Sequence record: PZ212788.1
Reading direction: 5' to 3' (one strand)
Origin: a phage
DNA length: 64,000 nt
Shown here: piece after piece, positions 1,830 to 60,207 of the stretch
How positions within the stretch are numbered: the stretch's first letter is position 1
How the letters are laid out: each line of letters opens with the position of its first letter
Translations under genes and position numbers: made by a program
The notes under the pieces: generated by a model
What the model was told of the DNA's origin: nothing
Database searches by the model: none
Seen by the model: the letters and a program-made list of their open reading frames with translations, nothing else

Positions 1830-4800
1830 ATGGCTGATATTAAAGTTGTCAGAATTGAATCTCTTCCTGCCACTACCGCAGTGACAGAGGATGATTACCT
1901 GGTTGTTCAACAACCAGACCTGACTCGTCGTGTAAAAATTGGCGATGTTGTCCATGTGGATGGGACTGTTTCTCATGTAATCTCCTTTAAGGAAGGTGGT
2001 AAGTTAAACGGCCCAATGGATTTTGCCTACTTCGAAGAGGAAGACCTCTACCTGCGTTGGAAAGGCGAATTTCCACACACTGTTCCTGCACTGTCTTCAC
2101 CGTACTCCGATGGTGGGATTACTGACGCTGCATGGATGGTATATACAGATCCGTCCTTAAGGGAGGAGCTGGAATCTACTATTGGCGCATCTATGATCAT
2201 GACAGCCGAAGGGCAGTCTGTCCAGGATGTGATGGATGTTACGGTTCAGACAGCTAACGATGCTAAAGCACTTGCACAGCGGGTAGATTTTGGTACAGTA
2301 CATACTGTAGGCGATGTTATTCACCTTGTCAACTTTGTGGGTCCTGCAGTTATTGAGGAGGGAAGAACCACCAACTACCCTTCCGTAGCAGCTGGTGAAA
2401 GATTTCTGAACGGTGTGGTATCTCGTCGTGATACTACAACTGTTGATGGTATTTTCCGTGGCGCTACCACCGGAGCCATGTACACCATTGCAGTAACCAA
2501 CGGTGTAGCAACAACGAAAAGAATAGCACTTCGTGATGAATTTAAACGCCTAGAGGCAAACAACCCAACAAGAACAGTTATCCGTGCTGGAGATGATTTA
2601 AATACGGCAGGGTACTTGCAGCTTGATGCAACAGGCCGTTGGGGTATGTGGAACCAACAAACAGCTTCGTGGCAACCTCTTGCTATAGAGCAAGGCGGCA
2701 CAGGGGCTAGAGATGCCGCTGGAGTCCGTATCAATATCGGTGCTTTCTATAAGCAACGTGCAGCCCTTGAGCCAAATTTCAATATCAATAACTTGACTGG
2801 TAATCAGGATGGTGTATACTATCAGCCAATGACTGCTTATGCAACTGAGGCGAATGGTTACCCTGCAGGTTCTGGTGCGGGTCACTTGATTGTTTGGCAG
2901 AACAATGCTAACGGCGGTACAGGTTGTCGTCAGGAATACTATCCATTCTCTAACGTAGATGTTTGGTATTTGAGAACCTATCAGGCCAACACAAATCAGT
3001 GGACTGCATGGCAGCCGATGGTCAGACCTCGTAACGATGATACCTTCAGATCTCATATTGGCCTTGGTAAAAACAACTCGCCAGCCTTCGGGCACCTTTA
3101 CTTAGCTCAATACTCGGGAGATGTTAAATCGGCCTCAGGTATTCTCCATGGAGATAAATATAATACTGACGGTGTCCTTGAGCATGGATATAGGATCTAT
3201 TCTGAGGTAAGAAACGACAATAAGGCTTGGTTGACAATCCACCTGCACAAAGGCGCAAAAGGATCTGAAACTCATAGATATTTAGGCTTCCGTGAGGATG
3301 GGGTCTTAGATTGTCCTAAATATATGCAGGTTGGTGATCTGAACGGTCAGATGGCAAACTGGGGACTTGGAGAATGGATCCGCAGTTCAGGAGCAGAAAG
3401 AGGTTTCTGGGGATCTAAGAAAGCCGCCAAGATGGTCATCTGGGATGGCGGTATGGACGAGCAAGGTGAAGGAACGCTTGAGTGGGGTGTTTATAACAAC
3501 CGGAAAGCCAAATGGGAACCACTACCGATAGCTTGTGGTGGTACCAGTGCCAGGACTGTAGGGGATGCTCAAGCACAATTCAGAATCCCTCTGGCAGCAG
3601 GTGCTAGACCATATGTAAACCTGCCTAGAACTGCAGCTATGCAGGACGGTAAGTATTATCCTATTATCGTCAGAACTGACCCCAACTTTGCAGCAACTAT
3701 CGGGACAGATTTAACCATTGTCACCAGATCTTCTTCTGGCGGCGACCCAATGAACTGTGCTACACTACAGTGTCACTACAGAACTGGTGGCTGGACAGAC
3801 AGAGGTGATTCTTTCCAAGGGGTTATTAATTTCTACCAAAACGAGAAAGCAATCCTCGGATGTGTATCTCCAACCAGAGGTAAGCAGGAGTATGTTGCAT
3901 TCTATGTAGAGGCACGTGCATTCCCTGTTACAGTATATGCTGGCGCTACTGTAATAGAAGTGTCAACCAGGGAGGCTGATTGGCAGGTAGGCAACGTGAC
4001 AGGTAACCAAGATGGTGTCAAGTTCTGTGCTCCTCTGGAATCTGCAGATTTGAGTCTTGCAATCAAAGGTGATGATGTAACAAACACCAGACCTCTGGTT
4101 GAGTTCAAAGGAACATCAGGTTTCTACACTGGTGGTGGAACTATGTGGCACTACCTGGGGACTCCTGAACGCTATGCAGTGATGAGCAAAATGAACATGC
4201 CTAAAGTCGAGCTTTGGGCAGACGGTATTGACTACATTTGTCCTGGTAGTCAGACCACTAGAAAAGCACTGTTCTCTAACGCAGGGTTCCAAGCTGCATC
4301 GGAAGGAACAGAGGATCTGATCAACAACACCTTTACCTCTAAATGTGGTAATGGTGCAAGACTGCAAGGCCAGGCAGAGTTCAGATCTACTCCGGAAGCT
4401 GGTCAAGTTATCGTTCGCGATGTTGTAGGTACAGCTCATAAGTTCTACAATTTCAACAAAGACGGCACATTTTTCCCTCCTGGAGGCTATGTTTGCCAGA
4501 CAGGTGCTGACTGGAACAATCAGTTTGGTAATACAAACCCCTCCAAGATAATGGCTGGCAATGTCAACGGGCCGGAAGGTTCGATGGTTGTTGGTGGACT
4601 GTCTGTGGCGTTTTCTGGAAACTATGCTTTCCAAATGGCTGGTCGCCTTGATCAGTTATACACTAGGTCTATCGAAGGTGGTAACCATAGGGCATGGAAC
4701 AAGGTTATTCAGCACCGTGGTCAAGGTCTGGGGACAGAAGACCTTAATGCCTACGATGGTAGCCGTGAAGGTTTCTATCACCAGGGTTCAAACGCTGACG

Positions 4801-5642
4801 CACTTGTAACAGATCGTCACTACCCTGCTCCGTACGCTGGTACACTGCTTGTTTACAAAAACACAGCTAACAGACCTCAAGGTTGTGTGCAGGAATATAT
4901 CACCTATTTTGGTGACAGATATACTCGTGCTGGTAACTACGTTGGCGATGTCTTTACTTGGGAAGAATGGAGACACGATGCTGGTAAGGGCATCCAGTTA
5001 AGACCTAATTACACTTTTGGTGAAACCAGTAATCAACTGGAAATTCATATCGGTGCTAATGGTCTTCCCTCCAACGCAGATGGCTTACCTAAGGATGATG
5101 CTGTACTCCATTATTGGGGTAACGGCAGCACAGGGGATCGTCCAAACGTGTTAGAGTTTAAGGTTCGTGACGAGTCTCAAGCAAATTGGGTATGGCATTG
5201 CGGTACCTTGCCGGATAAATCAAGATATCTTTCTGTAAACGGTGCTGTGAATTGCACATCTGTCAATCAGAGTTCTGACAGAGACCTGAAAGATAACATA
5301 GCTGTTATTCCTGATGCGTTAGAAGCTATCCGGAAGATGAAGGGTTATACTTACACTCTTAAAGAGAACGGTATGCCTTATGCAGGTGTTATAGCACAAG
5401 AGGTGCTTGAAGCGCTGCCGGAAGCAGTTAGCTCTTTCGTGCAAAGAAAGGAAATCCCAAACCCTGATCAGGATGGAACTCCTTTAGTAACAGAGGAAAG
5501 ATTCTACAGCGTGGATTACGCAGCCGTAACAGGCTTGCTTGTCCAGGTTTGCAGGGAACAGGACGATAAAATAACCGCCCTTGAGGAGCAGGTTAAAAAA
5601 TTGACAGAGGTTGTTACTGGGTTGCAAGAGAAACTTAAGTAA
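1830..5642 (+). CDS. Long tail fiber protein (1270 aa) with C-terminal intramolecular chaperone / S74-type self-cleaving domain
   Basis: RBS AGGAGA upstream of ATG; C-terminal SDRDLKDNIAVIPDALEAIRKMKGYTYTL plus coiled coil is the hallmark of autoproteolytic fiber chaperone domains; internal GGTGARDAAG and GGTSARTVGDA fiber repeats. Confidence 0.85.
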   Translation: MADIKVVRIESLPATTAVTEDDYLVVQQPDLTRRVKIGDVVHVDGTVSHVISFKEGGKLNGPMDFAYFEEEDLYLRWKGEFPHTVPALSSPYSDGGITDAAWMVYTDPSLREELESTIGASMIMTAEGQSVQDVMDVTVQTANDAKALAQRVDFGTVHTVGDVIHLVNFVGPAVIEEGRTTNYPSVAAGERFLNGVVSRRDTTTVDGIFRGATTGAMYTIAVTNGVATTKRIALRDEFKRLEANNPTRTVIRAGDDLNTAGYLQLDATGRWGMWNQQTASWQPLAIEQGGTGARDAAGVRINIGAFYKQRAALEPNFNINNLTGNQDGVYYQPMTAYATEANGYPAGSGAGHLIVWQNNANGGTGCRQEYYPFSNVDVWYLRTYQANTNQWTAWQPMVRPRNDDTFRSHIGLGKNNSPAFGHLYLAQYSGDVKSASGILHGDKYNTDGVLEHGYRIYSEVRNDNKAWLTIHLHKGAKGSETHRYLGFREDGVLDCPKYMQVGDLNGQMANWGLGEWIRSSGAERGFWGSKKAAKMVIWDGGMDEQGEGTLEWGVYNNRKAKWEPLPIACGGTSARTVGDAQAQFRIPLAAGARPYVNLPRTAAMQDGKYYPIIVRTDPNFAATIGTDLTIVTRSSSGGDPMNCATLQCHYRTGGWTDRGDSFQGVINFYQNEKAILGCVSPTRGKQEYVAFYVEARAFPVTVYAGATVIEVSTREADWQVGNVTGNQDGVKFCAPLESADLSLAIKGDDVTNTRPLVEFKGTSGFYTGGGTMWHYLGTPERYAVMSKMNMPKVELWADGIDYICPGSQTTRKALFSNAGFQAASEGTEDLINNTFTSKCGNGARLQGQAEFRSTPEAGQVIVRDVVGTAHKFYNFNKDGTFFPPGGYVCQTGADWNNQFGNTNPSKIMAGNVNGPEGSMVVGGLSVAFSGNYAFQMAGRLDQLYTRSIEGGNHRAWNKVIQHRGQGLGTEDLNAYDGSREGFYHQGSNADALVTDRHYPAPYAGTLLVYKNTANRPQGCVQEYITYFGDRYTRAGNYVGDVFTWEEWRHDAGKGIQLRPNYTFGETSNQLEIHIGANGLPSNADGLPKDDAVLHYWGNGSTGDRPNVLEFKVRDESQANWVWHCGTLPDKSRYLSVNGAVNCTSVNQSSDRDLKDNIAVIPDALEAIRKMKGYTYTLKENGMPYAGVIAQEVLEALPEAVSSFVQRKEIPNPDQDGTPLVTEERFYSVDYAAVTGLLVQVCREQDDKITALEEQVKKLTEVVTGLQEKLK

Positions 5643-7310: not shown

Positions 7311-10300
7311 TGCCAATTGCAATGATTGATAACATCGTTGCTTCTGCAAGATCTTCAAGTTATGACTGGAACGCATCCAAGGCAGCTCTGGCTGACAGCC
7401 TGAACACTGTTACCACCAGAACTCTGGATAAGATTTTTGAGGGCAACAAATCTTACAGAAGTCAGCAAGATAGACAAAAGCTTCTCAGATCTTCTGCTGC
7501 ACCTTGCTCTGTAGTGTATGGGAAGACACGCACATCTGGATTACTTGCGTTTTTGGAGCAGGACAGGGACAGGACCCTCCATTGTGCTATTGTTCTTGCC
7601 AATCATCCCCTGGAAGGTATAGAAGATATACTCATCGACGGTAATCCTATTTCCTCGTATGGAGATTTGATATCGTGGGAGCTACATAACGACAGAAAAA
7701 CATCTGATCCTTTCATGGGTACACACTGCCCGTCGTGGTCACCAGACATGATAGGTAGAGGGATCAGTTGGCTACGTGCCAGCTTCAGGTTTGACCCTAA
7801 CAAGTTCCCTTTTGGGTTGCCAAACGTTACACTCGTCAAGGTTGGTAAAAAATGCTATGATCCTCGTATCAGTAAAGAGGTGTATACCAATAACGCGGCC
7901 TTGGTGATTCTAGACTATTTAAGAACGTACCTTAAATGTCCTGACGAAACCATCAACTGGGAGTCCTTCAAGGAGGCTGCTAACATATGCGATGAGGCGG
8001 TAAGAAACGCGGACGGAACTAGTGAGCGCCGTTACACCATTAATGGTGAGTTCGATATGGATGAGGCCCCAGCAAGTATTATGGCAGAAATGCTGAAAGC
8101 TTGTGGTGCAGATCTCAGCTATGTAGCTGGTAAGTATGGACTGCTGGTAGGTGCATATTATGGTCCGGCAACAATGACACTGAGTGAGGACTGTGTCTGT
8201 GGTGAGGTTAAGATCTATCCGGAAGCCTCGTTTGACAAAAGATCCAACACAATAACTGGCAGATTCACCAGTCCGACTAAAGGGTATTCTGAAACAGATT
8301 TTCCATCAGTATTTGTCCCAGAGTGGATAGAGAAGGATGGAGAAAGAAAGATAATCGATATAGACTACCGCTTTGTTACCAGTCCTTACCAAGCTCAGCG
8401 TGTTTCTGCAATCTTCTTAAGACGTGCTAGAGCTGGCAGGATTATTGAAGTCACCTGCAATATGCGAGGTTTTAAATTTAAGCCTGGTAGTTACGTTACA
8501 ATGGACCTTCCAAGTATTGGTATAGTGGGCCAAGAAATGAGGGTTCTTGAGTGGGAGTTCACTAAAAAGGGTGGTGTTAAGGTAAAACTTCGCCAAGATG
8601 CTAAAGAGTGGAATGATGCCACAGGGCAACTTCCTGATTCCGGCGATGTAGATATTCCGATATCCCCGTCCGGTGTAGCTCAACCGCAAAACTTCAGATA
8701 CTCCGTTCTCCAAGCTGGGGAAGTAACTCACGGTGTTTTGGCTTGGGACAACGTTGGAACTTACGCTCAAAATATTGTGCAGGTAAGAAAGAACGGAGAG
8801 ATTGTTTGGACAGCACAGACAGTTGAGCAGTTTGTCCGAGTAGAAGGCTTGACCAAAGGGTCATACACAGCAACCGTGGTTGCAACATCTTATAAAGGTG
8901 GTGTATCTCCAGAAGCCTACTGCGAGTTCAACATTCAAGCACCTGAAGCTCCTGTTTCTGTAGAAGTTAAGCAGGGATACTTTGCTATCACCTTGATTCC
9001 GCATAGTAGGGATTTAGCAAGTGTTAGCACCCAGTATGACTTTTGGACATCCGGTATGACAAGGTTGCCAGACACCAGTGATGCAACCGTTACTTCAAAA
9101 GCCACCCGTATGGGTGTTGGTTCAACTTGGACATCTGAAGGTCTGCAGAACGATAAGATTTATTATTGGTATATTAGAACCACAAACGCTTTTGGTAGTT
9201 CTCAGTTTGTAGAATGCGCTGCACGCTGCTACACCTCTATTGAGGATTTGATGCCTCAGATAGATGCTGAATTCAAAAAGACAGAAACTTATAAAGAGTT
9301 GATGAGTACTTTGGATTCCTCTATTGAAGAGGTTGAAAATCGTGTCACAGAACTTAACAGGTACATGGATGGTAGGGTAGATGAAGCGTTCCAGCAACTT
9401 GGGGACAGAATAGGTGCGGTAGTTACAGAAACAACTCAGAAGTTTGAAGATGTCAATGGTAACATTACAGCGCTGGATAGGAAACTTGTTGCTGCACAGA
9501 ACAAATTCACCAACGATCTGAACACTGAAAGTGGCAGACTGGCATCTCTGATCGAGACAACCAATAAAGCAACTACTGATCTTCTGAACAAAAAGACAGA
9601 GGCTTTAGATGAGAAATTGGTTGCCGCCAAAGGTGAGCTGGTAGAGCAGATAGAGGGAGTTGAGAGCGGGTATTTAGCCGGAGATAAAACTCTGGATGGT
9701 AAGATCAATACTCAGAGAACAGAACTTGACGCAAGCATCTTGAGCACTAACCAGGCAACTGTGGATCTTTTGAACAGGACATCTGAAACTCTGGATCAAA
9801 AGATCAGTCAGACAAACGCGACGGTATCTAAAAACTATACCACCCTGGATGGCAAGATAACCACCGCAAAAACTGACCTCAACACCTTGATTGCCAATAC
9901 CAACAAGGCCACCACTGACTTGTTGAATCAGAAAACATCTGCACTGTCAGAGCAGATAACTTCTGCACGTGGGGAGATTTCTACCAACAAGCAGGCGATT
10001 GATGCTTTGGATGGAAAACTGACTTCCACAAAAACAGCGCTGGATGCTACAATTTCCGATACCAACAAAGCTACTGTGGACCTTATCAACGGCACAGCGT
10101 CAGCTATTCGTCAAGAACTTGCTGTTGCTAAGCAGGAGATCATTGATGATGTTGGGGATGTGTCCGAAATCAGGGCTGCAGTAGCTACAACATCTAAGGC
10201 TGTAACCGACTTAGAGGGTAAAGTAAATGCTCAATGGGGCACAAAAATACAGGTAGACTCCGCAGGGAATAAATATGTTGCAGGTATCCAGTTGGGGATG

Positions 10301-59045: not shown

Positions 59046-59074
59046 TACTTGAAAATTCCTGGCATATCAAGTAT
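59046..59074. repeat. Inverted repeat at the start of the noncoding region
   Basis: ATACTTGA ... TCAAGTAT arms separated by 13 nt, immediately after the last small gene. Confidence 0.4.
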
Positions 59075-59086
59075 AAGGGGGATTTC

Positions 59087-59181
59087 TAAAATGGATTTCC
59101 TCCTTTTGATATTTCACCGGGCTGGATATTTTAAAATTCTTAGAAAATCAGAAAATGGATCGAAAACTAAAATGGATTTTT
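59087..59181. repeat. Cluster of three AAAATGGAT(T/C) motif copies
   Basis: TAAAATGGATTT at 59087, GAAAATGGATCG at 59151, TAAAATGGATTTTT at 59168; a fourth copy at 59521. Confidence 0.5.
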
Positions 59182-59355
59182 CAGAGTAGGCGCGACAAGC
59201 TGAATAACTCATCCTATCGTTTGCACCATATTCCAGGCCACCATTATAGATTTCCCACACATGCTAACCTCTCTCTACTAGAACTTCCTCCACTTACCCT
59301 TGACCTTCTATGGTAACAATCTAACCGCTATCTTGAAGTTGCGGTGCAGCTTTCC

Positions 59356-59535
59356 AGGTACTCGATCTACTTTTCATTTCAGGGCTTGGATTTTCTGAAA
59401 ATTTTTCTCGATAAATTTCTCAGTACTCGATCTGTTTTTCGTTTTCTGAATCGGATTTTCTGGAAATCGTTCCGGCTCTCAACCTGAAATTTTTGGGGAC
59501 GAAATCGATTTTTCGTTTTCAGAAATGGATTTTTA
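59356..59535. repeat. Imperfect tandem direct repeats, about 65-bp period
   Basis: AGGTACTCGATCTACTTTTCATTTC (59356) versus CAGTACTCGATCTGTTTTTCGTTTTC (59421); GGATTTTCTGAAAAT (59388) versus GGATTTTCTGGAAAT (59453); partial third unit 59491-59513. Confidence 0.6.
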
Positions 59536-59649
59536 AAATTTCTATATGGGAATATTTTAGTGGATACTATTTTATAGTAAATTGTTACGGAGGGTAATTA
59601 GCGTGCTAATTAAATTTATTAAATGCGAGGAGTTCTCATTTAGAATTTT

Positions 59650-59666
59650 GAATGATAATCATTCTC
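59650..59666. promoter_or_regulatory. Fur-box-like motif, copy 1
   Basis: GAATGATAATCATTCTC matches the 3' two-thirds of the Fur consensus GATAATGATAATCATTATC at most positions. Confidence 0.3.
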
Positions 59667-59780
59667 GTTTGCAGAATAACGGGCAGGCCCGGTGATTGTC
59701 TCCCGGCCCCTGTTGCCCCGGCTTGTTATTATAGTATCACACAGGACAAAGAAAGCAAGGATTTTTTGCATAAATTTTTA

Positions 59781-59802
59781 AATGATAATGATAACCGTTC
59801 TC
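59781..59802. promoter_or_regulatory. Fur-box-like motif, copy 2
   Basis: AATGATAATGATAACCGTTCTC contains GATAATGATAACCGTTCTC, about 16 of 19 matches to the Fur consensus. Confidence 0.3.
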
Positions 59803-60207
59803 ATTTTATGCAGCGCCCATCCCCAGTGGTTGTCTCCCCCGTCACCGGTGCCTGCCGTCCTTTCGATAGGTATATTGTGCCACCTGGCGGGGCCGCTGTC
59901 AACACCTTTCAAAAAAAAAAAATTATAACCAGGTGCGCCCACTGCCAGGACCTGGCGGGGGAGAGTGAAAGCTTGCAAACCTGGTAGGGCTATGCTATAG
60001 GGTAGGCAACAACTGGAGAGGAGGTACAAAAATGAAAGGTAATATAATCCCCTGGAAAATGTAGCGACTAATGACGCTGAGGCTATCGCCATGGTTGAAA
60101 AGGCTATGGCGGGAGCGTTGGAACATAAAGAAGAGTACGAAAAAATGGTGGTTAACCTGGCGGGGGCGGCAGGTGGATTCTATCATAAAAATAATTTAAA
60201 ATAGTCG

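Follow-up and report, generated by a model that had tools for sequence, protein, structure and literature searches.

Conserved Fur-type operators in a putative non-coding control module at the early-region border of an rV5-like Escherichia coli phage

The phage DNA analyzed here, a stretch of 64,000 nucleotides from sequence record PZ212788.1 (the window), comes from an rV5-like myovirus of the genus Vequintavirus, a virulent phage of Escherichia coli. It harbors three Fur-type operators within positions 59622-59805, starting at 59622, 59651, and 59787, and these form part of a conserved non-coding module, probably with a control function, that borders the early genes on their upstream side. 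In all sequence tests that were run the boxes behave as Fur-type operators, so that at the level of sequence the Fur reading is well supported, and binding by Fur is predicted. An earlier annotation made from the letters alone (the original prediction) had described a duplicated GC-rich element with Fur-box-like motifs at this place, and had offered an iron-responsive regulatory region, small RNA genes, or a horizontally acquired fragment as explanations. The first of these is the best reading, with both Fur binding and transcripts as predictions, and the phage probably reads the iron status of the cell via the Fur protein of its host. The 1.5 kb around the element matched 122 phage records with 80-99% identity, the closest being E. 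coli O157 typing phage 14 (97.8%).

Comparison with relatives defines the motif as a 19-bp palindrome, AATGAKAAT-N-ATTMTCATT. The three boxes of the window are listed below with their matches to this palindrome and with bit scores from a weight matrix made solely from 40 boxes of other, related phages.

59622-59640: Fur box 1, AATGCGAGGAGTTCTCATT, the weak member, 15/19 positions, 17.8 bits
59651-59669: Fur box 2, AATGATAATCATTCTCGTT, 18/19 positions, 23.9 bits, with a copy shifted by 6 bp at 59645
59787-59805: Fur box 3, AATGATAACCGTTCTCATT, 17/19 positions, 26.1 bits, the top score in the window

Against these three scores, the fourth-ranked site of the matrix in the 64 kb reaches 10.6 bits. 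Box 3 and its copy shifted by 6 bp at 59781 make up a 25-bp array of hexamers. The overlapping sites at 59645/59651 and 59781/59787 thus have the palindromic, repeated-hexamer architecture of Fur clusters, in which sites overlap at 6-bp steps (PMC2189734). Boxes 1 and 2 are exactly 29 bp apart, a phasing that recurs in distant relatives in arrays of two to four boxes (1462/1491/1520 in L127; 2001/2030 in L004, phage GAP31). The outer arms of the phage boxes are better conserved than the center, as in AATGCGAGGAGTTCTCATT and AATGATAGGTATTCTCATT. Both of the Fur-like motifs named in the original prediction are present, although the boxes number three rather than two. The first motif, GAATGATAATCATTCTC (59650-59666), has a perfect 15-bp palindrome, GAATGATAATCATTC, at its core and differs from the 19-bp E. 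coli consensus by at least four mismatches (15/19 by hand alignment). The second, GATAATGATAACCGTTCTC (59784-59802), matches the consensus GATAATGATAATCATTATC at 16 of 19 positions, as had been estimated, and is the sole site in the 64 kb with no more than three mismatches. The motif might have scored no better than shuffled sequence, but none of 100 shuffles contained a consensus match.

The phage-box matrix was also run over 50 kb of the host genome (E. coli K-12, 600,000-649,999), where it found six sites of at least 10 bits. None of the six falls outside the fepA-fes, fepD-entS, and fepB-entC intergenic regions. These account for about 730 bp of the 50,000 and carry the Fur-controlled divergent promoters of the enterobactin cluster; the boxes of the window outscore these host operators under the same matrix. 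The exact 16-mer ATAATCATTCTCGTTT (59655-59670, box 2) is shared with the fhuA promoter region of E. coli K-12, and the 19-mer AATGAKAATCATTCTCATT was found without mismatch in at least 120 bacterial species from many phyla. Pfam families were counted for the 146 open reading frames (ORFs) that read away from this 19-mer among the bacterial matches listed. The most frequent were the TonB-receptor Plug (12), Fe3+-type solute-binding proteins (8), FUR (7), and ZnuA/SitA (5), then FeoB (3), siderophore-binding proteins (3), and FTR1 (2).

No Fur homologue is encoded in any Vequintavirinae genome searched; a phage-encoded Fur was therefore rejected as the ligand, and the host protein is the probable one. 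Several "phage" records that match E. coli Fur resemble host contamination. ArgR, Zur, and IHF boxes were rejected for misfits in spacing or to the consensus sequences. The palindrome AATGAGAA-N3-TTCTCATT could instead be the target of a dimeric regulator encoded by the phage, the likeness to a Fur box being coincidental or a case of mimicry. The better preserved outer arms would fit such a protein, and most early proteins of rV5-like phages have no known function. Nevertheless, the motif adjoins iron genes in bacteria, the phage matrix is specific for E. coli Fur operators, and clusters of the motif occur in many unrelated viral contigs (44/116 sites vs. 0/63 for a control, see below). A single regulator common to such diverse phages is unlikely, which makes this explanation quite improbable.

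The duplication with a shared core is real, and the two units are true paralogues (59638-59670 and 59774-59806; 59688-59704 and 59822-59838, the latter pair 88% identical; offset 134-136 nt). The original prediction had each unit begin with a Fur box, but the conserved sigma-70 promoters are on the minus strand, where each unit ends with a box. Read in that direction, a unit consists of a sigma-70 promoter, a GC- and purine-rich leader of about 55 nt, and the Fur box or boxes.

59874-59922, minus strand: promoter P_L2, 10/12 in the promoter scan, with TG
59806-59867, minus strand: leader of unit 2, G/A-rich, with the shared core GGGAGACAACCAC (59825-59838, plus strand); repeat D6
59728-59758, minus strand: promoter P_L1, read from the sequence
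59670-59724, minus strand: leader of unit 1, with blocks GAGACAATCACC (59691-59702) and CTGCCCGTTATTC (59674-59686)

P_L2 is composed of a -35 element TTGACA (59902-59897), a 17-nt spacer, TG, and a -10 element CACAAT (59879-59874). The A12 tract at 59911-59922, reported correctly in the original prediction, is its T-run at the UP-element position. The early promoter of the subfamily, TGTTGAC-N17-TATAAT (PMC7344957), is of the same class. Among nine Vequintavirus genomes the -10 variants (CACAAT, CATAAT, CAAAAT) keep A2 and T6, and the tolerant third position alone varies; transcription would start near 59867. P_L1 has a -35 element TTGCTT (59758-59753), a 16-nt spacer, and TG-n-TACTAT (59739-59731; alternatively TATAAT, 59733-59728), with a predicted start near 59724. 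It is weaker by consensus, yet invariant within Vequintavirus. Counted from these starts, box 3 covers about +62 to +80 of P_L2 and about -63 to -81 of P_L1, and boxes 2 and 1 occupy about +55 to +102 of P_L1. By sequence the boxes are members of the Fur-box family, yet they stand outside the classical position over the -35/-10 elements; at about +55 to +102 of conserved minus-strand promoters, they overlap solely a weak and poorly conserved promoter candidate on the plus strand.

On the minus strand purines predominate in the leaders, and A is far more frequent than T. The leader of unit 2 is near-invariant in the nine Vequintavirus genomes (minus-strand composition G 22, C 11, A 14, T 5). 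Across 23 sequences from about 10 lineages the two blocks of the unit 1 leader vary little or not at all, while the five nucleotides between them do; read on the minus strand, the conserved primary sequence is GAGACAAWCACC, five variable bases, CTGCCCGYYATTC. Runs of G are present in the leaders of most, not all, lineages, and the aggregate GC skew is +0.08. An R-loop or G-quadruplex leader was rejected on the basis of these two observations.

The module is kept in place in all 122 Vequintavirus matches and occurs as a module in distant genera as well, across the Vequintavirinae and Stephanstirmvirinae. Around unit 1, identity is 70-86% in phAPEC8-like, Mydo-like, Seunavirus, Certrevirus, Serratia, and Pectobacterium phages, although little other non-coding DNA is shared. 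On the minus strand the aligned module reads sigma-70 promoter, leader of about 55 nt, AUUC, four variable bases, and box(es), and the order promoter-leader-box is found in 23 sequences. The promoter hexamers are conserved and the spacers variable. Equivalents of P_L1 are found in the same place in most relatives examined, as TTGCAA, TTGATC, or TTGCTT, N16-18, and TATATT, TATTAT, or TATTCT, often with TG. The scan reported them in L003-L005, L126-L129, and L131; those of L002, of L130, and of the second copies were recognized by eye.

Where Vequintavirus has unit 2, the relatives from other genera all carry a conserved candidate RNA of about 95 nt on the minus strand, RNA-2.

L004 (GAP31), about 2165-2270, minus strand: RNA-2; also in L002, L003, L126-L131, and L252-L266

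RNA-2 carries the motifs ...CGCCACCCCACGGCGAAAAGGCGGGGCUAAC...GGUGGAUCGCCGGUAG and is equipped with a sigma-70 promoter of its own, a terminator, and a tail rich in U. Its consensus fold comprises 16 pairs, one of them G-C in 10 sequences vs. A-U in 8. It matched no Rfam family and is not present in the window. Because P_L2 is a homologue of the promoter that drives RNA-2 in phage W70, it follows that in the rV5 lineage a copy of "leader plus box" took the place of the RNA-2 body. This replacement is the duplication of the original prediction, and the units are thus read on the minus strand, with the box at the end.

Mydo-like phages contain one or two extra promoter-leader-box modules about 7 kb away and in the opposite genome orientation. 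These are co-directional with early genes and are followed by two strong promoters.

L047, 4300-4410: extra module
L262, about 4980-5070: extra module
L259, about 9860-9945: extra module

Its conservation in both Vequintavirinae and Stephanstirmvirinae means that the module is not foreign DNA, contrary to the proposal of a horizontally acquired GC-rich fragment. The GC content of the element (50-54.5%) had been set against an AT-rich phage background, a description that fits only the immediate left flank (31%); the window has 42-47%. No homologue of the element was found in 5,426 E. coli genomes. Among plasmid records the sole full-length match is an rV5-like genome under a wrong label, and no true plasmid homologue was found; CP057073.1, deposited as an E. 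coli "plasmid" of 137.6 kb, is an rV5-like phage genome. The same data bear on the idea that the locus has no function, being a chance AT-rich palindrome in a recently acquired GC-rich fragment. A single short match indeed means little, given that a control 16-mer of equal composition also occurs at 63 sites in IMG/VR. But the shuffles gave no match, the region is near-invariant in Vequintavirus where its neighbors vary, the module persists in distant genera, and it has no homologue in E. coli genomes. The conservation data already contradict a chance origin, which is barely credible.

The complete Vequintavirus genome MG065646 (137 kb) has two box clusters and no others; they stand at the two ends of the early block of about 12 kb. 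(At least 16 records named "Campylobacter phage", MG0656xx, are rV5-like coliphage genomes.) The second cluster lies 11.8 kb to the right of the first, beyond the window, and consists of three boxes (MG065646.1, 26307-26459; phage Gotham, 298-450). In Gotham it falls within the annotated direct terminal repeat of 459 bp, with 9 nt between the end of its last box and the repeat edge. This fits phage LL12, for which a non-permuted terminal repeat of 459 bp has been reported "between two convergent transcripts" (PMC6658697). The two clusters have nothing but the boxes in common. The locus at 59622-59805 is itself not in a terminal repeat, the 459-bp repeat being 11.8 kb to the right, between convergent genes. 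A genome terminus at the Fur-box locus, near which some assemblies break, was rejected in view of the mapped repeat. The 514-bp terminal repeat of Klebsiella phage KPP-1 also bears Fur-type boxes. A region of phage Bas54 that spans about 2 kb between genes has been reported to be without tolerated transposon insertions (bioRxiv 10.1101/2025.11.20.689424). One of the box-bearing non-coding regions of rV5-like phages, that of the second cluster, may be this insertion-free region.

Outside the rV5-like group, the 16-mer core occurs at 116 unique sites in IMG/VR, followed by ATT at 53 of them. The control 16-mer of equal composition was found at 63 IMG/VR sites, and raw counts of the 16-mer in viral contigs are for this reason uninformative alone. 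It is the flanks and the clustering that separate the Fur-type 16-mer from the control: a second box of at least 16/19 lies within 200 nt at 44/116 sites, as opposed to 0/63 control sites. This suggests that box clusters in many uncultivated phages are a general phenomenon. Clusters in unrelated viral contigs are situated just downstream of strong promoters, by clusters of TTATCCACA (the DnaA box), in iteron-like arrays of 2-4 copies, and at small-terminase genes (examples among L006-L124 are L008, L044, L089, L045, L012, L106, and L083). In one terminase family the motif is within the coding sequence, and that part of the terminase enrichment is discounted. A broader proposal, which we consider doubtful, is that host Fur is a general cis partner of virulent phages. 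In rV5-like phages the clusters would mark the borders of the early block and the terminal repeat, and in many unrelated phages non-coding regions that resemble origins or lie close to promoters or terminase genes. DNA-bound Fur, as a roadblock or a scaffold and not in the manner of a classical promoter repressor, would tie transcription boundaries, and possibly replication start or DNA-end processing, to cell iron.

These locations also raise the question whether the boxes are switches at all. They may be decoys, hundreds of replicating genomes soaking up Fur and thereby inducing host iron uptake for the iron-dependent enzymes of the phage, or Fur may have an architectural role in origin firing, end protection, or packaging. 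Such uses would suit sites that outscore the host ent operators, the cluster within the terminal repeat, 9 nt from its edge, the boxes of the KPP-1 repeat, and those by DnaA-box clusters, in iteron-like arrays, and near small-terminase genes. However, the boxes keep a constant order and spacing relative to promoter and leader as well as their phasing of 29 bp, which suggests a local function in cis. Titration by about 6-9 sites per genome is uncertain because Fur is abundant; part of the terminase enrichment comes from the one family mentioned above, and we know of no role of Fur in replication or packaging. The chances of either role appear slim.

The element sits within about 1.15 kb without conserved ORFs (59046-60200), and the neighboring genes are all on the plus strand. 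On the left is the end of a gene block that opens with a DNA polymerase gene about 8.5 kb upstream, and on the right small early genes follow one another, every one under a separate TTGACA promoter. Between the boxes and the left-hand block lies an AT-rich repeat region.

59348-59560: AT-rich region, 31% GC, three tandem units of 65-74 bp with AAAATGGATTT-type motifs (repeat families D1-D3); further copies at 59083-59179

This region is nearly invariant in the nine Vequintavirus genomes, whereas the adjoining 59185-59350 varies freely, and GAP31 carries similar CTCGATC...CTTTTCA motifs. The tandem units at 59348-59560 and 59083-59179 are iteron-like, with the form TACTCGATCT[G/A]YTTTTC...GGATTTTCTGAAAAT, and near-invariant in the genus. 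Two of them hold ATCTGTT, the core of the class II pause signal of T7 RNA polymerase; rV5-like phages are without a T7-like polymerase. A perfect 8-bp inverted repeat, TAATTAGC-GT-GCTAATTA (59598-59615), is located between box 1 and the AT-rich repeats and conserved in the genus. It is missing at the equivalent place in GAP31 and Mydo, where there is a third leftward promoter (TTGACA, N18, TG-n-GAAAAT).

The arrangement of promoters, boxes, and repeats can be read as a gate, in which iron-loaded Fur controls leftward early transcription into the adjacent conserved AT-rich region. We put this forward tentatively, its probability falling somewhat short of even. P_L2 and P_L1, in tandem, would each transcribe a leader of about 55 nt leftward into Fur operators. 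In an iron-replete cell, Fe2+-Fur on the boxes would halt or attenuate this transcription as a roadblock, and Fur on box 3 may cover the UP/-35 side of the next promoter, P_L1, since box 3 is at about -63 to -81 from it. In an iron-poor cell the boxes would be free and transcription would continue into 59348-59560. The AT-rich region there, into which leftward transcription presumably runs, is a candidate origin or DNA-unwinding element; it could act as a transcription-activated origin, as in T7, T4, and ColE1, or else the read-through could be antisense to the replication-gene block. Occupancy by Fur, the leftward transcripts, the roadblock, and the role of the left-hand region are what we infer from the layout. 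P_L2 and P_L1 do point into 59348-59560, which is necessary for an origin of this kind, yet far from sufficient. The minus-strand reading gains support from the second module copy of Mydo-like phages, which is co-directional with the neighboring early genes.

Several points weigh against this gate. The boxes do not overlap the -35/-10 elements of strong promoters, the site of classical Fur repression, and Fur bound 55-100 nt beyond a transcription start is not known to act as a roadblock by any established mechanism. Box 1 is weak, and the centers of several phage boxes are GC-rich, unlike those of canonical Fur sites. P_L1 is below the scan threshold in the window (its -35 matches at 3/6). 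The conservation of the leader, CACC-N5-CTGCCCGYYATTC, is left unexplained by a roadblock, and sequence analysis found no 3' end, terminator, or conserved leader fold. An origin function of the left-hand region is a guess, and the cumulative GC skew, one of the comparisons proposed with the original prediction, has no inflection at 59-60 kb and no switch at the Fur-box/AT-rich locus. The second cluster, being in the terminal repeat, may hint at a function connected with DNA ends or packaging instead of transcription. Finally, a full-text literature search found no transcriptome of rV5-like phages.

A different reading, which builds on the small RNA genes of the original prediction, takes the units as a tandem pair of small RNAs, transcribed rightward and repressed by Fur in the manner of PrrF1/PrrF2 or RyhB. 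A promoter TTGAAT-N18-CAGAAT would have the last box as its spacer, the classical position between -35 and -10, and GGUGAUUGUCUCC would serve as a C/U-rich seed for pairing with ribosome-binding sites. In most Vequintavirinae "TTG" indeed precedes the leader-proximal box, which is the sole box in several lineages, and GAAT follows at a fixed distance. GGTGWTTGTCTC, common to both units, is conserved as primary sequence between variable flanks, as a seed would be, and the tandem layout recalls PrrF1/PrrF2. This promoter, however, scores just 8/12 and is missed by the scan, which found no plus-strand promoter of at least 9/12 in 59600-60000. Its putative -10 varies at position 2 (CAGAAT, CTGAAT, TGGAAT, CGGAAT), its -35 is lost in phAPEC8 and W70, and the well-conserved promoters are on the opposite strand. 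With GGTGWTTGTCTC as the seed, matches with up to three mismatches number 6 vs. 5.0 expected (window only), a chance level.

Other properties of an RNA gene were sought on both strands. No terminator was found on either strand in 59600-60000. A covariance-model search of the GC-rich segments, also proposed with the original prediction, was run with Rfam to E=10 over the window region and GAP31; no family matched the element, and noise appeared outside it only. RNAalifold on 23 leader sequences returned 0 pairs. When leaders were folded singly, z values ranged from -2.6 to +0.8 over the two strands, and most lineages did not improve on shuffled sequence on either strand. A closing and an inner stem specified by hand were about 70% paired, with 197 vs. 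193 of 276 on the two strands and thus no strand preference. The small RNA genes of the original prediction have no Rfam match, consensus fold, strand preference in pairing, or terminator, and rightward small RNAs are unlikely. Its view that the long ORFs here are non-coding is borne out: the plus-strand ORF that starts in a box stops after 6-26 codons in relatives, ending early in phAPEC8, Mydo, and GAP31, the region has indels, and the ATG on the minus strand is not conserved. Coding was accordingly rejected. A sigma-54 promoter (GGCAC-N5-TTGC) was rejected by eye, as GGGCA(G/C)-N5-GGTG is without the -12 GC.

To the right of the module the sequence is less constrained.

59936-60001: variable spacer, indel-rich in the nine-genome alignment, with the second copy of CCTGGCGGGG (59951)
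60032-60204, plus strand: small early gene, frameshifted into a 10-codon ORF (60032-60064) and a 37-aa ORF (60091-60204)

Relatives have a CTGGC-GGG-GCCAG hairpin and 20-50 additional nucleotides in the spacer, where the window is deleted. In relatives the small gene is a single ORF of 57 aa with a strong ribosome-binding site, GAGGAGGTACAAAAATG (Gotham F10B_0201); several other isolates have different frameshifts at the same spot. The three copies of CCTGGCGGGG in the original prediction are present (0.05 expected in the window), those at 59883 and 60156 as placed and the second at 59951 rather than 59950. They are not equivalent: the first is in the P_L2 spacer, the second in the indel-rich hairpin region, and the third inside the small coding frame, outside the Fur module. 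The non-coding region of the second box cluster has CCGGCGGGGCAGGGG motifs that recall CCTGGCGGGG. No tRNA or transfer-messenger RNA was found within the window.

The phage boxes share with the E. coli Fur operators (fhuA, fepA-fes, fepD-entS, fepB-entC) the 19-bp palindrome and hexamer array, as well as the clustering with 6-bp shifts. The host operators overlap the -35/-10 elements of iron-uptake promoters, whereas the phage boxes lie 55-100 nt downstream, are phased by 29 bp, and have no adjacent iron gene. RyhB and the tandem PrrF1/PrrF2 of Pseudomonas resemble the phage units in duplication, the link to a Fur box, and a short C/U-rich plus-strand motif. In contrast to them, the phage element has no credible plus-strand promoter, terminator, conserved fold, Rfam match, or sequence similarity, and its conserved promoters are on the other strand.

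The primary origin of T7 consists of two tandem promoters and an AT-rich stretch, and T4 oriF/oriG and ColE1 RNA II are other transcription-activated origins. As in these, tandem promoters in the window point into an AT-rich, repeat-bearing non-coding region between replication and early genes. The G-richness of the leader, however, is weak and not universal, there is no GC-skew switch, and the operators between promoter and AT-rich region have no counterpart there.

Virulent cyanophages carry NtcA sites and PhoB "pho boxes", likewise sites for a global nutrient sensor of the host in a lytic phage, whose program can then follow host physiology. Those sites are in promoters of phage metabolic genes and concern another regulator, nutrient, and host, whereas the rV5-like boxes are in non-coding early-block edges and a terminal repeat. 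In stx1, a Fur box lies upstream of a prophage cargo gene. Temperate lambdoid coliphages have a Fur box upstream of the cargo operon sitABCD (PMC6969025). The phages with such cargo boxes are temperate and the control is the classical one of an iron-related operon, whereas the rV5-like phage is virulent and no gene follows its boxes. For Vequintavirinae, as for other virulent phages, a full-text literature search yielded no description of Fur boxes.

Specialists would not expect a common lytic coliphage to have conserved, top-scoring Fur operators in its terminal repeat and on either border of the early region. rV5-like phages are among the commonest virulent coliphages of the gut and those with the broadest host range, and are candidates for phage therapy; iron is the nutrient most strongly withheld from E. 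coli by the mammalian host. The boxes provide a testable handle on two large conserved non-coding regions of rV5-like genomes. If rV5-like phages do read Fur, it would be one more of the few global regulators of the host that lytic phages exploit. The early program, and possibly replication or packaging, would then differ between iron-rich broth and iron-poor sites of infection, which would bear on the efficacy of therapy.

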